Origin: a virus
Taxonomy: Duplodnaviria > Caudoviricetes
Reading direction: 5' to 3' (one strand)
IMG/VR virus record: IMGVR_UViG_3300031994_000011
Coordinates: 107,959 to 171,958 of that record
Length of the DNA stretch: 64,000 bases
The notes under the pieces were generated by a model, which did not search any database, was not told where the DNA came from, and saw nothing but the letters and a program-made list of their open reading frames with translations. A program made the position numbers and the translations under genes. Position 1 is the first letter of the stretch, and each line of letters starts with the position of its first letter. This document shows positions 1 to 45,221 of the stretch, piece after piece.

Positions 1-3000
1 TAATATAATAATATTTTATATTTTAAAAATCCTTGATAGCCACTTTGTTGATTAAAATCTATCTATATTGTATATTCTGTATCTTGTATTAAATTTTTCT
101 CAATAGAAAGAGTTTCTGATAAGTTTCTAGTAGGATCTGCTTTATTTAATGTAACAATTCCTTCAAAATTTATATCAAATATTGTATTTAATTGTACCGT
201 AGGAATCTATGATTCTGTAGCAGTTTCTACTGCTCCATTTTTAGTTTTTAAAGTATTACATAATACATTTCCTTCAGAATCAACCTTAAAAACAGTATCG
301 CCAAATACATTAGTAAATTCTAGCTACCCTTTATTAGCTTTTACTTTAAATTCTCCACCTGCAAGAGTTATAGCTCCTTGAGATCCAATACTAATTGAAC
401 CGCCACCTAAGTACATTGAAGAATCATCAGCCGTTAAGTAAATAGAGTTCCCATTTAACGCTATTCCACTACTATCAAGTACTATTGCAGCATTATCATT
501 CATTGCCTTTAATCCAGTAATATCTGACTAATTCACCCAATCAGATGTACCATTTATTCTATATTGAACATTATTCCCATTTTCTTGCTTTTCTACATAA
601 GTCATTCCATTATCATCGATCCAATATATTTCAGTATTGTTTGCAATTGTAATACCAGAATTTGATCCAATGAGCATTGGATAATTACTGTCATTTCCCA
701 ACACAAGTCCATAAGTTTTTCCCTTCCATACTGTTAATCCAGTAAGTCCGTATGTTTTAATTGGAGCAAAATCTCTAACTATGTCTGCAGCATCTTCAGA
801 AGCAGAGGTCGCATTAGCATTAGCAACTGTTAAACCATAATTAGCAATAGGTTCTGTATACTAAGTTGTTTGCTGATTTGTTGAAGGATCTTTCCAAACT
901 TGTTTAAAACTAGTATAATATGTATAGTCACTAATATAAGTAGGAACTGAAGTTGACCACTAGCTCTAAGTGTTAGCAGTTGGTTTATTTGGCTTACTTG
1001 TAGCTAGCTTATATAGCTATGTTGAAGAAATTAAAGATATGCCTTGTGATCCTTGTGTAACAGCTCCTTGCTAACCATCATTAGGATAATATTCACAGCT
1101 ATATTCAGTTTTTGTACTATTATTTTTATAAGTTATAGTTTTTTCAATCCATAAATATTTTCCTTTCTAAGGATTTCGTGTAAGGCTCCATCCACTGCTT
1201 GGCGGATTGGTAGAATTAGTAGAAACAGCATACCTATATGTTGGATCACCAACGGGTGTAATCGCATTTATATCACTTAAATCATAATTGCCATTAGTAG
1301 TAGTTATTTGTGTGCCAGATAATTGGAAGCTATTAGCAACAATATCTCCAGCTATTGTTAATTTTCCAGGAGAATATTTTAAATTATTACCTAATCTAAA
1401 GGCATATTTCTAATTTGTATAAACAGGTGTCCAATGATTAGAAACAAAATCTAAATCGCCGCTATAATCATCATTACTTTTATACATCTTATGATCATAA
1501 AATACTATATCATCTGTATTGTAACTAGTGTTTGGTTGAAAAGAAGGAATGCCTGCTATCTATGTATCTAATATAAAATTATTAGTATTAATCCACATAT
1601 TTGAATTTGAACCAATTATTATCCCATCATTACTAATTTTAACAAAGCTACCATTACTTAATGAATCATTCATCGTTGTTGTACCAATCATTATACCAGC
1701 CTAATCCATCAAAATCAAATTTCTTTGTCCATTTACTTGTGTGGCTAAACCAATCGAATCTTTGGTAATGACAACGCCAGAAATAGAAGAACTATTTTTT
1801 AGCGTATTATAATTTATATTAGAAGTATAATTTTGAGTACTATTACTAATTGTTCCAATATTTTGACCTACTGCTAAAACAATTTTATCAGAAGTAATCT
1901 AAACCGCTCCATTGTTAGAGTTACTATTAGATATATTTGATACTCCTAATAAAATTTGATTTTTATCTATTGCAACAGTCGCGCCATCTAACGTTTCATA
2001 TTCACCAGTATTATCATCTCTACTCATTTTTTTTGAATTTCCAGAATAAAAAACAATTTTACCTGTAGAGCCCATCCAAATACCTTGAGTAGGATGAAGT
2101 ATTAAAGCAGAAGCTGTATTATCTCCATTACCAGTTACCAACTAAATCGGCTAATGTGGTAACTATTTTGCTTTTTCTAAAAATCCATTTAAAATTTCTG
2201 CATTCTAAATATTATTGCCATTTAAAGTTGTTAAACTACTCCAAGCTCTGATTAAAATATCTCCTGCTATGTTAAAAACTCGTTCTAAATTTTGACTTTT
2301 TTTAACATTATCTTCAAATTTAAATGTCATATAATCATCTAAAGTTACTGGAGATATATCTTCATCATTTAATTCAGCTTTACTATTTAAAACTTTAAAA
2401 GAATCTGCAAAAATAGTTCCAGTAATATATAAATCACCACTATTTGGATCGGCCCAAAATACTTCATCATTATTCCAGTTTCTTAATTTTAAACCATCCC
2501 AGCTTACCTAAACTCTAGTTACACTAGCTGGTAATACTTGATATGAATTATTTATATAAACATTTGCATCTTTTTCAGCAATTAAGAATAATCCATTTTC
2601 ATTAAATTTTACATACTATAATTCGGTATATCCATCAGAATTATTAAAAGAATTAAGATAATCATCAAAGTTATTATATTCATTTTCACTTTCATTTTCA
2701 TTTTCATTATTACTAACTATACTATTCCATTTATTCTAAAGATCTTTAATTCGCTACAAGGCAGAAGAATCATTAAAATCTTCTAAGAAAGATTTATATC
2801 CAAATAATCCCTATTGATTTAATTGAAATCTTAGTCTATCTCCAGCAAAAATTTTAACTAAATTGGTATCTAATTGTCCAGTAGTAATTAAATCAGCATT
2901 TATTCCATTTGGCGTGATCGCGGTATTCCAAATCCAATCTTCGTTTTCATTTTTCTGAGAAGCAGTAAAAATTCCATCACATCTAAAATTCACAATACCA

Positions 3001-39206: not shown

Positions 39207-41279
39207 TCACCCCCTTCTTTCTTTTTTATTTTTCTTTGGTGTATAAAACGTATATTCACTATAGTTTTTCTTCTTCGACATCTTTAGTGCCTTATCTTCA
39301 TAGTACTTTACCCTATAAAGAGCATACTATAACGCTGAGAAGCGGTCCTTTTCTACGGAACGTGAAATACGTTCTATTTTAAATTGGTTCTGCGCACCAG
39401 TTGGTTTAAGTTTCAAATTATTTAATTCATCCATTAGTCGTGATGTCATTATATAAGGCATTAAAAAAATATGTCTATCTACACTAGTCATATTTTTACC
39501 TTTTTTTGTCTTTAATAATTTATCTTTTATTACATTTTCATTCGCTAAGAAAGCGACCGAACCGTTATTTATTTGGGAGAAGAAGTTCGAATGTATTAAG
39601 TCATCATTACTTGAACCAGCTTTTATGTCATAGATTATTCCATTTAAAGAAGGCCAAGGCTCATTGCTCTAGACTTTTTTCTAAGGTGGTAAATGATGAT
39701 CATTATTAAAGGCATAATATGATGGAAATTGCTATCCAGTTTTAAAATCTATAGATGGCAGAACCATAGCATCTAATAGACCAATACCGGGACCGTTACC
39801 GTCAATCACGATTTCGCGCGGATTATATAGTTGAATAAGTTTTTTTAGCCTTGGAGCTTGTTCCGTAATATAGTTCGCGCCATGAATAACTTCAGTATAA
39901 ATAACTTTCTTCTTAAAGCTGGTTTTTTCGGGCATTACTTTAATAACCATAACAGCGGTATTCGCAGCGTATCTCGCAACGTCTCATTTATATTCCATTA
40001 AATTCGCTACATTTAATGCGTTCTTTTATGAACTGCTATATGTTTCCATATAGATTAGACTATATCTTCATCTTATTAAAAGATGCTCCCTTTTTCAGAC
40101 ACCAAACGCTTGTATCTTACATAATAGTCGTTGAACCTTTTCGTAAAGAAAAATCTATAAAATTCTTTACAAACTTGGCTGCGGATTACCTTTTAATACG
40201 GCTTCCCGCAATTTAAGGAGTTATTGCCCTGTCATCACTGGCAGGCGGGGCAAGCTGTTCACCCCTATCAGATAAAATGTGTTTTTATTAACAGGATTCT
40301 CTTGTGCTTTTTTTTCACATTTTAATAAAGTTCTTCTTTTTGCTAATTTTTTAGAGTCAAGCCAAGCCTATTTATTATTACCAGTCCATAGACTTAAACT
40401 TTCACGAGAAAAGCTTTCATCAGACACGGTAGCTGAATAACGCTGGTCCATCATGGTTGCTCTATCCAAAAGACCATAATGAAGAGGAACTTCATAACTT
40501 AAACCCCATACAAAATACTATCTTGGGCGCAAAACAGCATTTACAGCACACTAAATTAACTTACTATACATGAATACTGTCTTTTCGCGCGCGGTAGTAA
40601 TAAAAATTTGAGGAGAAGTAGGTTCTTCTGGATTAAGTGTTCCATCAACCTATCTACGAGCAACGTTCATTTGAGGAAGCAAAACTTCCGTGTAATCTGT
40701 TTCTTCTATTGTCGCGGCCTACTCTAAAATACCGCATGTCGCGCGCAAACCACGGCTCGTGTCTTTTGAAACAACCGTTATATTACTACCATTTTTAAAA
40801 TGTAATTCATAATAGTTACCACTCTTTTTCTAACCAGTTTTACCATCATCAAGGCGAGTAGTAAGCTATTTTCTTAATAAAGGCCAATGACGAAAAATTT
40901 CTTCAAATTTAGCTTCAGCAATTTTTATTACTGTACCTTTTACGTCAGAGGCGATGAATATGTTAGAGTTAGGAAGTAGGACGGCGCGCACAACAGCACT
41001 AAGATAAGCGGTAAAAGACTTGGATGTCGCGCGTGTAGCAGTCCAAAAATGGTATCTGTAACGCATTGATGCGCGCAAAGCAATTCGTTGAAAAAGAAAC
41101 AAATGAAAATGCTTAGCATCACTAGAATCTTGAATTTCATCAAGAAAGCAATCAGGATAAAGAAGCCAATAGTTTAAATATTTTGTAAATAACTATTTAT
41201 TAGCATCTAAAAAAGATTTCGTTAATACTACGCCTTTCTAAATTGGTATTCCATTTCTGTAAGCTACTTCTTCAGCCAT
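39207..41279 (-). CDS. terL: Terminase large subunit, spliced join(41279..40261, 39984..39207), ~598 aa; TAG read-through
   Basis: Walker A-like ATRATSKSF, Walker B RGLRATCGILE*AA, coupling motif IFITTA, nuclease motifs YLIGVDVAR, IVIDGNGPG and KDRFSAL*Y. Confidence 0.9.
39985..40260 (-). mobile_element. ORF-less group I intron (276 nt) in terL
   Basis: Splits Val codon GT|A immediately before the catalytic Asp (G-V-D-V-A-R). P AATTGCGGGAA, Q AATCCGCAGCCAAG, R GGTTCAACGACTA, S AAGATATAGTCT; terminal G. Confidence 0.9.
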
Positions 41280-44525: not shown

Positions 44526-44676
44526 AGGATACCTTCTTTCCGGGCTTTTGCCCTAAAATTGCCTTTTCGGCTATAAGTATTCTATCATAGATAAAAACAG
44601 ATTGCAAGCTTTTTTTTGAAATTCCATATGTTAACACTTTTCCATTAATTGACATTTACATATATTGACAATCATT

Positions 44677-44740
44677 TTAGCACTCACTTAAAAAGAGTGC
44701 TAACAATTTTTTGTTAGCACTCTCTACCAGTGAGTGCTAA
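44677..44740. promoter_or_regulatory. Two tandem perfect CIRCE elements (HrcA operators)
   Basis: TTAGCACTC-N9-GAGTGCTAA at 44677-44703 and 44714-44740. Confidence 0.9.
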
Positions 44741-44746
44741 TATTTC

Positions 44747-44830
44747 ATGAAACGTTTCATCATTTCATTATTTTCATGAAACGTTTCATAGAGCATTTCA
44801 TCATTTCATCGTTTTCATGAAACGTTTCAC
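44747..44830. promoter_or_regulatory. Three LacI-family/cre-like palindromes ATGAAACGTTTCA(T/C)
   Basis: Copies at 44747-44760, 44776-44789 and 44817-44830; CG-centred palindrome. Confidence 0.6.
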
Positions 44831-44854
44831 GCGGTTACCACCATAAAATGAAAA

Positions 44855-45060
44855 TATTACGAAAATGTTACGATTGTAATACTTTTGTAACAATTTTTTT
44901 GTACTTTTTGGCCATTTTTTGACCATAAACGCCTTGGATGTAATACATCCAAAGCTGAAGGTTGCATTTTTGAGTCAAAAATGCTATAATTAGATGATGG
45001 AAGGAGCTTCCAGAGTCTGTAAATGTTACGGAAATGTTACAATTGTAACAGAATCGTAAC
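44855..45060. promoter_or_regulatory. WalR/OmpR-family-like direct-repeat boxes in two 37-bp blocks
   Basis: TATTAC-N5-TGTTAC-N3-TGTAAT-N5-TGTAAC (44855-44891) and TGTTAC-N5-TGTTAC-N3-TGTAAC-N5-CGTAAC (45024-45060). Confidence 0.5.
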
Positions 45061-45151
45061 AATTCCAGAAACTGGTGGATCCGCCCACCAGAGGCAGGCG
45101 CCAGCGGCGCCGCCGCTCTCCCGTCTCCCGCCTGGTCCCTAATATATACGA

Positions 45152-45215
45152 AGGAGCTGGAGCTGGAAGCTGGAGCTGGAAAACGGAGCTGGAGCTGGAG
45201 CTGAAGAAAGGAGCT
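45152..45215 (+). repeat. GGAGCT hexamer tandem repeat in the leader of the first early gene
   Basis: ggagctggagctggaagctggagctggaaaacggagctggagctggagctg...ggagct. Confidence 0.8.
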
Positions 45216-45221
45216 ACAACA

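Follow-up and report, generated by a model that had tools for sequence, protein, structure and literature searches.

The hub and its CIRCE pair

The window analysed here is the last 64 kb of a 171,958-bp virus record (IMG/VR IMGVR_UViG_3300031994_000011; Duplodnaviria, Caudoviricetes), and our subject is a non-coding gap within it that carries two copies of CIRCE (controlling inverted repeat of chaperone expression), the predicted operator of the host heat-shock repressor HrcA. A 127-bp terminal repeat of the record indicates a circular assembly. On one side of the gap, plus-strand genes extend across the origin of the record as far as about 107.7 kb; on the other, minus-strand genes lead back to 107.7 kb. 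The gap (44526-45221, about 700 bp) is therefore the sole divergence point of the whole 172-kb genome, and we call it the hub. Early genes lie on its plus side, and P0001 and the late genes on its minus side. Its GC content is 29-35%, against 41-56% in the flanks, and the cumulative GC skew has a local minimum there. Besides CIRCE, the hub contains three short palindromes (PAL14), two blocks of TGTWAC hexamers, a 19-bp palindrome (the first of 38 copies), the first early promoter and a leader with GGAGCT repeats (Table 1). A blastn comparison of the hub with GenBank phages gave no match.

An original prediction, made from the letters of the sequence, had taken part of this gap for a possible decoy platform of host operators: two perfect CIRCE elements within about 400 bp, three LacI-like palindromes and two blocks of WalR-like boxes. 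The CIRCE pair is there as described. The pattern TTAGCACTC-N9-GAGTGCTAA matches exactly twice, with 9-bp arms and a gap of exactly 9 bp, and these are the only matches at up to three mismatches in the window (0.01 expected from shuffled sequences); no further copy occurs in the whole genome. The spacer of CIRCE1 is one base off that of the second CIRCE in a relative, L275 (loci from other records are given as L numbers). In its usual context the element follows the -10 hexamer of a sigma-A promoter and precedes the start codon of a class I heat-shock gene; here that context is lacking, as no chaperone gene is present. The prediction had noted this too: family scans of the flanking genes and ten early open reading frames (ORFs) found no chaperone family, and HrcA, the HrcA DNA-binding domain, Cpn10 (GroES) and Cpn60 (GroEL) were found nowhere in the whole phage genome. 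Family scans of the neighbours, the sole check for these functions, likewise found no sugar or cell-wall gene beside the hub.

CIRCE in related phages

A scan of IMG/VR for exact CIRCE returned more than 112 loci. About half of them adjoin GroES (23 loci), Hsp20 (21) or HtpG (6), the largest groups among 167 ORFs flanking CIRCE in other viral contigs, and represent the canonical regulon. A separate group has proteins in common with this phage and carries CIRCE at the same early/late junction (L009, L016, L055, L095, L054, L022 and L063, joined through shared early genes by L017, L020, L094, L099 and L105). Other members were found without using CIRCE, namely L129 and L131 as contigs of metagenome-assembled genomes (MAGs), L149, L150 and L153 through P0001 homologues, and L274 through the pattern of the second TGTWAC block; L275 was found by a scan for a CIRCE arm and then a CtsR box. 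Altogether the family has 34 CIRCE copies in 20 related loci at this junction. Of these copies, 26 are perfect, and 25 different spacers occur; 11 of the 20 loci have a single copy, and the range is one to four per genome. In the six whole or partial genome records searched (this one and five relatives, two of the latter at least 90% complete), CIRCE is present at the junction only.

The arms persist where their surroundings do not. Perfect CIRCE spans lineages in which the flanking sigma-like protein P0002 is about 22-60% identical to that of this phage. In the closest relatives, L149 and L150 (P0001 88% and 72% identical), the DNA from the first to the second TGTWAC block is 85-90% identical to the window and the stretch from P0001 to CIRCE is unalignable, yet a single perfect CIRCE, with a new spacer, is found in both. 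Tandem arrays are seen in L055 (four units of 49 bp), L124 (three) and L275 (two CIRCE and a double CtsR box), and L153 has degenerate copies only. Invariant arms combined with free spacers and replaced flanks point to selection for a sequence-specific protein; by this pattern, the CIRCE elements are under selection and probably recognised by such a protein. The two copies in this phage are best explained as true binding sites for the host repressor HrcA, kept by selection, and the claim that they are operators of host type has held up in the comparison with diverged relatives.

Two other accounts of the element were considered and rejected. An RNA hairpin does not agree with arms that never vary, with the lack of compensatory changes and with freely varying loops. 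Recent capture of a host promoter, with the segment absent from relatives, was named in the original prediction among the findings that would speak against it. We found instead that CIRCE recurs in lineages as diverged as those above, and that its flanks cannot be aligned even between the closest relatives.

The module is nevertheless accessory in the family. Nine relatives found in IMG/VR through P0002 have no CIRCE at up to three mismatches, and two of the nine are complete genomes (181 and 162 kb) with CIRCE nowhere in them. Among MAG-derived relatives with enough flanking sequence, CIRCE is absent in five of seven. L095, which has CIRCE, and L132, which has none, are 81% identical in the nucleotide sequence of P0002, and their upstream DNA is unrelated; in G001 the junction is only about 100 bp long and has no arrays. 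Within the sub-lineage that carries the TGTWAC blocks, CIRCE accompanies every full-block case (this phage, L016, L055, L274, L149, L150 and L275), and L151, with a partial block only, has no CIRCE.

Some further observations concern CIRCE-bearing DNA in and beyond the family. Long simple-sequence tracts, made of TTTTCC-type pyrimidine repeats and of TAGA/AGT/GAGAA repeats, lie beside CIRCE in L149 (~230-440) and L150 (~520-720, reverse strand) and beside the CIRCE promoter in L063 and L094. For the large CIRCE-groES records L014, L025 and L078 no kinship with this phage was seen, as none matched a conserved late protein; since L014 and L078 are proviruses, CIRCE in these two may belong to flanking host DNA. 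Small viral contigs (L007, L015, L021, L034, L046, L056, L059 and L073; 5-7 kb) have CIRCE beside an Hsp20 gene and a REP_ORF2-G2P replication protein, and would represent a small replicon with an HrcA-controlled chaperone gene.

CtsR boxes and candidate hosts

Operators predicted for a second heat-shock repressor, CtsR, occur at the same junction. In the loci initially compared, the pattern RGTCAAA-NAN-RGTCAAA gave six perfect boxes, all in family members: L016 (~11482), L095 (~375), L128 (~1791), L129 (~4331 and ~4554) and L150 (~463-514, with CIRCE). About 100 other CIRCE-bearing viral loci had no perfect box, and the window has none. In L150 the box lies 10 nt from CIRCE. L275 (163.5 kb), which has many early genes in common with this phage (50-64% identity), packs a perfect CIRCE, a double CtsR box and another perfect CIRCE into 95 bp (379-473), and the order continues after 20 nt with the first TGTWAC block, a palindrome, a TTGACA promoter, the second block and AGCTG repeats. 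The gathering of predicted host stress-repressor operators in this hub is a real theme in the family. The search of related phages for operator clusters at the same junction, proposed with the original prediction, was productive for CIRCE, found in 20 loci, and for CtsR boxes; PAL14 was found in none.

In addition, a palindrome matching the Rex (or CRP-like) consensus TTGTKAA-N4-TTMACAA occurs in L020 (18 matches), L063 (9) and L094 (4), where it precedes early promoters and replaces the 19-bp palindrome of this phage. It could be a site for host Rex or for a phage regulator of the same specificity.

The MAGs that hold related contigs belong to Acutalibacteraceae (two MAGs, four contigs), Roseburia, rumen Clostridiales and other Bacillota. 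All four MAGs tested encode HrcA and carry 2-4 CIRCE sites each, not counting those on related phage contigs; both Acutalibacteraceae MAGs also encode CtsR. At the hrcA and groES sites that we read, CIRCE begins 4-11 nt after a sigma-A -10 hexamer, and one further MAG site lies 7 nt upstream of the -35 hexamer of htpG. By the position of its site, the repressor gene hrcA of the candidate hosts falls under CIRCE control as well. In the phage, promoters follow the sigma-A type and ribosome-binding sites the strong Shine-Dalgarno type.

Promoters beside CIRCE

The hub has candidate promoters in both orientations near the CIRCE pair. A sigma-A-like promoter directed at P0001 has its -35 hexamer 70 bp from CIRCE1, which lies upstream of it. 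In the opposite direction, the -10 hexamer of a candidate promoter, P_C, ends 10 nt before CIRCE1. The same geometry, a sigma-A-like promoter shortly before CIRCE and directed towards the early genes, is found in L063 (7 nt, with a near-perfect TTGACA-17-TAGAAT), L009 (16 nt) and L131 (18 nt); among the lineages compared there was no case directed towards the late genes. L153 has three slightly degenerate CIRCE in the leader of an early-type promoter, and in L099 and L105 CIRCE is placed, twice, after the terminator of one early gene and before the ribosome-binding site of the next.

CIRCE can also contribute promoter-like hexamers of its own, as it supplies TTAGCA and, where the neighbouring bases allow, an extended -10 of the form TG-n-TAAAAT. 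Both copies in the hub do so at a spacing of 18 nt, CIRCE1 with TTAGCA and TG-n-TAAAAT on its minus strand, and CIRCE2 with TTAGCA and TG-n-TAATAT on its plus strand. Similar hexamers are embedded in three of the four L055 copies, in L054 and on both sides of the first CIRCE of L275.

Other elements and neighbouring genes

The WalR-like blocks of the original prediction are present, each 47 nt long, and match the consensus formally: TGTWAH-N5-TGTWAH occurs six times in the window against 0.64 expected, and three of the six matches are in the hub. The two blocks are 81% alike. The first is conserved in L149, L150, L016, L055, L274 and L275; a search of IMG/VR with the pattern of the second returned L016, L055 and L274 only, all three of which have CIRCE. 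Where conserved, the blocks consist of four phased hexamers and always bracket the first early promoter. Control of cell-wall genes, which would mark a WalR site, finds no counterpart here, since the blocks bracket an early promoter and no cell-wall gene was seen. The economical reading is that they would serve a dedicated regulator of the first early promoter, phage or host; an arrangement of four phased hexamers would be compatible with any binder of the OmpR type or with a tetrameric phage protein.

That promoter, P_E1, is conserved at 85-90% with L149 and L150, and L016, L055 and L275 have equivalent TTGACA promoters. The 19-bp palindrome before it occurs in 38 copies genome-wide, all in the early region, and relatives have variant palindromes where it sits. 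A stricter pattern of palindrome plus promoter had no match in IMG/VR, and a T-rich 19-mer from the conserved part, searched against metagenomes, gave 119 unrelated chance matches, none with the hub.

Downstream of P_E1, the 229-nt leader folds far better than shuffled sequences (z = -4.4). Same-orientation arrays of the AGCTG type (AGCTGG/GAGCTG) lie at 45153-45215 of the window and at the same place in L009, L016, L055, L131, L150, L151, L153 and L275, where they precede the first early gene or fall in its 5' end, beside a GC-rich stretch. The array in the leader is possibly an RNA element or a Chi-like array. A 39-aa ORF (45023-45142, plus strand) begins on the first hexamer of the second TGTWAC block; in L016, L055 and L275 the block begins at a start codon behind a good ribosome-binding site, with the same N-terminus, ML-x-KCYN. 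A leader peptide is possible, as is an accident of the repeats.

The three PAL14 palindromes of the hub (ATGAAACGTTTCAT) are exact at 44747 and 44776 and have one mismatch at 44817; the 13-mer quoted in the original prediction is exact in all three. They have the form of LacI/GalR operators, being about 14 bp long with a central CG and an AAAC/GTTT core, and their half-site spacing, which we take to be of the Cra/PurR type, would be 2 bp shorter than that of a CcpA cre site. The host regulon or phage conservation expected of such an operator was not found. PAL14 has no further copies in the phage genome and is absent from all relatives, including those with P0001 88% and 72% identical, and the four candidate host MAGs have 0-1 copies each, no more than of a control pattern. 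We therefore rejected PAL14 as a host LacI-type site. In its place L016, L095, L131 and L124 have TGTATACA repeats, L055, L129 and L063 have GTTAG...CTAAC palindromes, L054, L095 and L020 have CATATG-centred repeats, and some relatives have nothing. PAL14 thus looks like a private, lineage-specific tandem expansion, and of the three operator types named in the original prediction, only the predicted CIRCE sites are assignable to a host regulator.

Table 1. Predicted features of the hub and its neighbouring genes (positions in the 64-kb window).
Feature	Position	Strand	Description
P0002	42147-43481	-	Flanking gene, sigma-like, PHROG 5767
P0001	43731-44525	-	First minus-side gene of the hub, 264 aa, TAG-free; ORF and translation
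P0001 promoter	44579-44607	-	Sigma-A-like; TTGCAA, 17 nt, TAGAAT, with upstream TG; promoter scan
P_C	44639-44666	+	Candidate promoter; TTTCCA, 16 nt, TATATT; consensus match 9/12
CIRCE1	44677-44703	.	Perfect predicted HrcA operator; spacer ACTTAAAAA
CIRCE2	44714-44740	.	Perfect predicted HrcA operator; spacer TCTACCAGT
PAL14 array	44743-44830	.	Three CG-centred 14-bp palindromes in a 41-bp tandem unit rich in TTTCAT
TGTWAC block 1	44849-44895	+	47 nt; precedes P_E1; four hexamers at spacings of 11, 10 and 11 bp
19-bp early-promoter palindrome, first copy	44934-44952	.	9 bp upstream of the -35 hexamer
P_E1	44962-44990	+	First early promoter; TTGCAT, 17 nt, TG-c-TATAAT; read from the sequence
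TGTWAC block 2	45018-45064	+	47 nt; in the leader of the first early transcript
Leader segment	45075-45221	+	GC-rich, with GGAGCT repeats; leader of the first early gene
P0003	45222-45386	+	First early gene, 54 aa; homologues after the hub in L150 and L153

The gene adjoining the hub on the minus side is a swappable cassette. The P0001 family is found in this phage, L009 and L149-L153, and unrelated proteins, all without a known family, take its position in L016, L055, L095 and L022. P0001 had no match in Pfam, PHROG, NCBIfam or PDB sequences (including a profile search against PDB sequences); its 36 homologues are all unnamed, a peptide-pattern search of IMG/VR gave no match and its Atlas features gave a faint restriction-enzyme lead. 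The nearest cultured relatives of P0002 are "sigma factor" genes of Enterococcus Herelleviridae (22% identity), and its C-terminal Cys4 segment matches endonuclease VII, HNH and Lar-like PHROGs. Minus-strand genes at 3-43481 are broken under the standard code and open, including an ORF of 6244 aa, when TAG is read as sense (the TAG=Q setting served ORF finding only). The TAG count of P0002 homologues ranges from 0 to 12, so recoding differs within the phage family. A group I intron (Rfam RF00028, 95 bits, full length) lies at 40036-40270 on the minus strand, between late-gene ORFs 39207-39950 and 40221-41279; in L009 and L121 the homologous late gene is split by inserted DNA. For most early ORFs the function was not recognisable.

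Discussion

Phage exploitation of a host stress repressor is very probable at this hub, as judged from the sequence comparisons above. HrcA requires GroEL to remain active, and CIRCE acts as an operator near the transcription start. From the arrangement of sites we infer HrcA binding, the promoters affected and a physiological logic, as follows. Through CIRCE, HrcA would govern host sigma-A promoters in the hub, with P_C and the promoter-like hexamers in CIRCE1 (minus strand) and CIRCE2 (plus strand) as candidates. Active HrcA would shut hub transcription into the early region and towards P0001; once HrcA lost its GroEL support, through heat, proteotoxic stress or the infection's own folding load, hub transcription would come on. 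In relatives with CtsR boxes, the second heat-shock repressor would work by the same logic. The 19-bp palindrome and the TGTWAC blocks, as the hub's own circuitry, would control the first early promoter, and replicating genomes would titrate some HrcA as a side effect. That HrcA-gated hub promoters sense host protein-folding stress in this way is the reading we favour, held with a confidence slightly short of even. CIRCE is always in this hub and, in several lineages, just downstream of a sigma-A promoter, which favours sensing over pure titration, and a single copy in most relatives, as expected of an operator, supports the same conclusion.

Several observations weigh against such stress-sensing promoters. 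CIRCE is dispensable, since 14 relatives found without regard to it do not have it, two complete genomes among them, and the P0002 tree intersperses carriers with non-carriers such that its well-supported branches need at least four gains or losses. The promoter candidates in this phage are weak consensus matches (9-10/12), recognised by sequence alone. In L016, L054, L022 and L274 CIRCE lies 45-125 bp upstream of the nearest good promoter, and in L022 and L020 it is succeeded by a terminator hairpin; direct occlusion therefore does not explain every case. Anything from about 110 to more than 800 bp separates CIRCE from the first early promoter. The early genes also have strong promoters of their own, so what an HrcA-gated transcript would add is not obvious. 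Finally, the hosts are candidate Clostridia from MAG binning, which is unreliable for phage contigs.

The original prediction put a decoy first and promoters that sense host stress second. In the decoy, CIRCE, together with the CtsR boxes of relatives, would regulate no phage promoter; copied hundreds of times with the genome, the sites would soak up the few HrcA and CtsR molecules and leave host groESL and dnaK derepressed, to the benefit of large virion proteins that need folding. Candidate hosts hold so few CIRCE sites (2-4 per genome) that phage copies would greatly outnumber them, and with 1-4 sites on each replicating genome some titration is to be expected. The phage has no chaperonin genes, yet it encodes very large proteins such as that of the 6244-aa ORF, and GroES, Hsp20 and HtpG genes beside CIRCE in other viral contigs imply that chaperone supply matters to phages. 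The tandem arrays of L055, L124 and L275 would suit a sponge, as would the variable distance between CIRCE and promoter, which is expected of a site that needs only binding. A decoy is defined by sites uncoupled from promoters and numerous enough to shift the free regulator pool; CIRCE numbers 1-4 per genome here. Against a decoy, 11 of the 20 family loci have a single copy and those of L153 are all degenerate; a decoy could sit anywhere, yet CIRCE is always in this promoter-rich hub, often with host-like promoter geometry. Titration would also be buffered where hrcA is CIRCE-controlled, as in the candidate hosts, and titration of CtsR would induce Clp proteases, with no obvious gain. No phage operator decoy was found in the literature searched. 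On balance we consider a decoy rather unlikely, and the wider proposal, that large lytic phages of this family mop up HrcA (and in relatives CtsR) with their replicating DNA in gut and rumen Clostridia and so induce host chaperones without encoding any protein to that end, a shade less likely again.

The remaining explanations are less probable. An architectural role, with the hub as a transcription-activated replication origin or as a leading or stopping point of DNA entry (such as the injection-stop region of T5) where HrcA, CtsR and others form a nucleoprotein complex, would suit the sole divergence point of gene orientation, its local minimum of cumulative GC skew and its AT-rich composition, as well as the palindrome arrays that crowd the hub and change from phage to phage and the simple-sequence tracts beside it in relatives. 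The skew merely tracks gene strand, though, and the close relatives G001 and L132 have junctions of only about 100-450 bp without arrays, so the hub is not an essential origin; we know of no role of HrcA in replication or DNA entry, and regard this account as improbable. We are marginally more sceptical still of a phage-encoded protein that recognises CIRCE-like sites, their likeness to the host operator being incidental or mimicry. Other hub repeats do appear phage-specific and co-vary with lineage, and most early ORFs have no known function. Against this, 26 copies match the host consensus at all 18 specified bases in lineages with P0002 about 22-60% identical to that of this phage, whereas phage-specific operators drift; no HrcA-like domain was found in the phage, and the co-occurring CtsR boxes are a second host heat-shock operator. 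Least credible, and very improbable, is that the element is an inert relic, left by a host heat-shock promoter that the phage once captured, perhaps with a groES or hsp20 cassette since lost. CIRCE does accompany GroES, Hsp20 or HtpG in other viral contigs, and L063 has a complete host-like promoter-CIRCE unit; a relic would decay, yet around arms that remain perfect the spacers and flanks turn over even between the closest relatives, and no chaperone remnant adjoins.

Phages borrow host regulators, as temperate phages do with LexA, and co-option of a host regulator's operator is a known kind of event. Like LexA boxes and phage-borne CIRCE-chaperone cassettes, the sites described here would be host repressor operators travelling on phage DNA; unlike them, they are orphans, whereas LexA boxes and the cassettes regulate an adjacent recognisable gene. 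The arms and spacer length are identical to those of the class I HrcA-CIRCE operator of Bacillota (groESL, hrcA-grpE-dnaK-dnaJ), and in several relatives the position just downstream of a sigma-A -10 hexamer is that of hrcA and groES in the candidate hosts. The phage sites differ in lying in a non-coding hub with no chaperone gene after them, in 1-4 copies and at variable distance from promoters, and HrcA would bind them by prediction. Dual control of dnaK and groESL by CtsR and HrcA in staphylococci and streptococci was reportedly described by Chastanet et al. in 2003; L150 and L275 resemble that arrangement in having perfect CtsR heptad repeats within 7-10 nt of CIRCE, but the window has no CtsR box, and the target would be the control region of a phage instead of a chaperone operon.

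In function, the nearest analogue is probably the set of Spo0A boxes that Bacillus phages phi29 and Nf carry at their early promoters (PMC2731898). There a lytic phage has operators of a global host regulator at early promoters, coupling it to host state; CIRCE may be a counterpart, and in several lineages of the present family predicted consensus promoters adjoin it. The regulator and signal differ (sporulation as opposed to protein-folding stress), and in phi29 an effect of Spo0A on mapped promoters and on replication was shown experimentally (PMC2731898), whereas the promoters here are predicted from their consensus. Synthetic or genomic decoy arrays of transcription-factor sites (PMC3322331, PMC8599769) resemble the tandem CIRCE in being clustered high-affinity sites able to compete with regulon promoters; with 1-4 sites per genome, amplification here would need phage replication. 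No report of CIRCE, HrcA or CtsR operators in phage control regions was found in the literature searched, in which a control hub of a lytic phage tied to HrcA and CtsR, as proposed here, is therefore undescribed.

The contrast between CIRCE and PAL14 shows that operator-like repeats in phage hubs need conservation checks before they are assigned to host regulators. Orphan CIRCE at the early/late junction would provide a simple sequence marker for a widespread family of uncultured phages of rumen and gut Clostridia, and because CIRCE and HrcA are well understood, the module should be easy to test. If the hub acts as a decoy, replicating phage DNA would induce host chaperones and would be the first natural operator decoy in a virus. 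If it acts as a sensor, part of the phage programme would be timed by the chaperone load of the host. Either mechanism, if true, would give a virus a new, protein-free means of reading or rewiring the proteostasis of its host.

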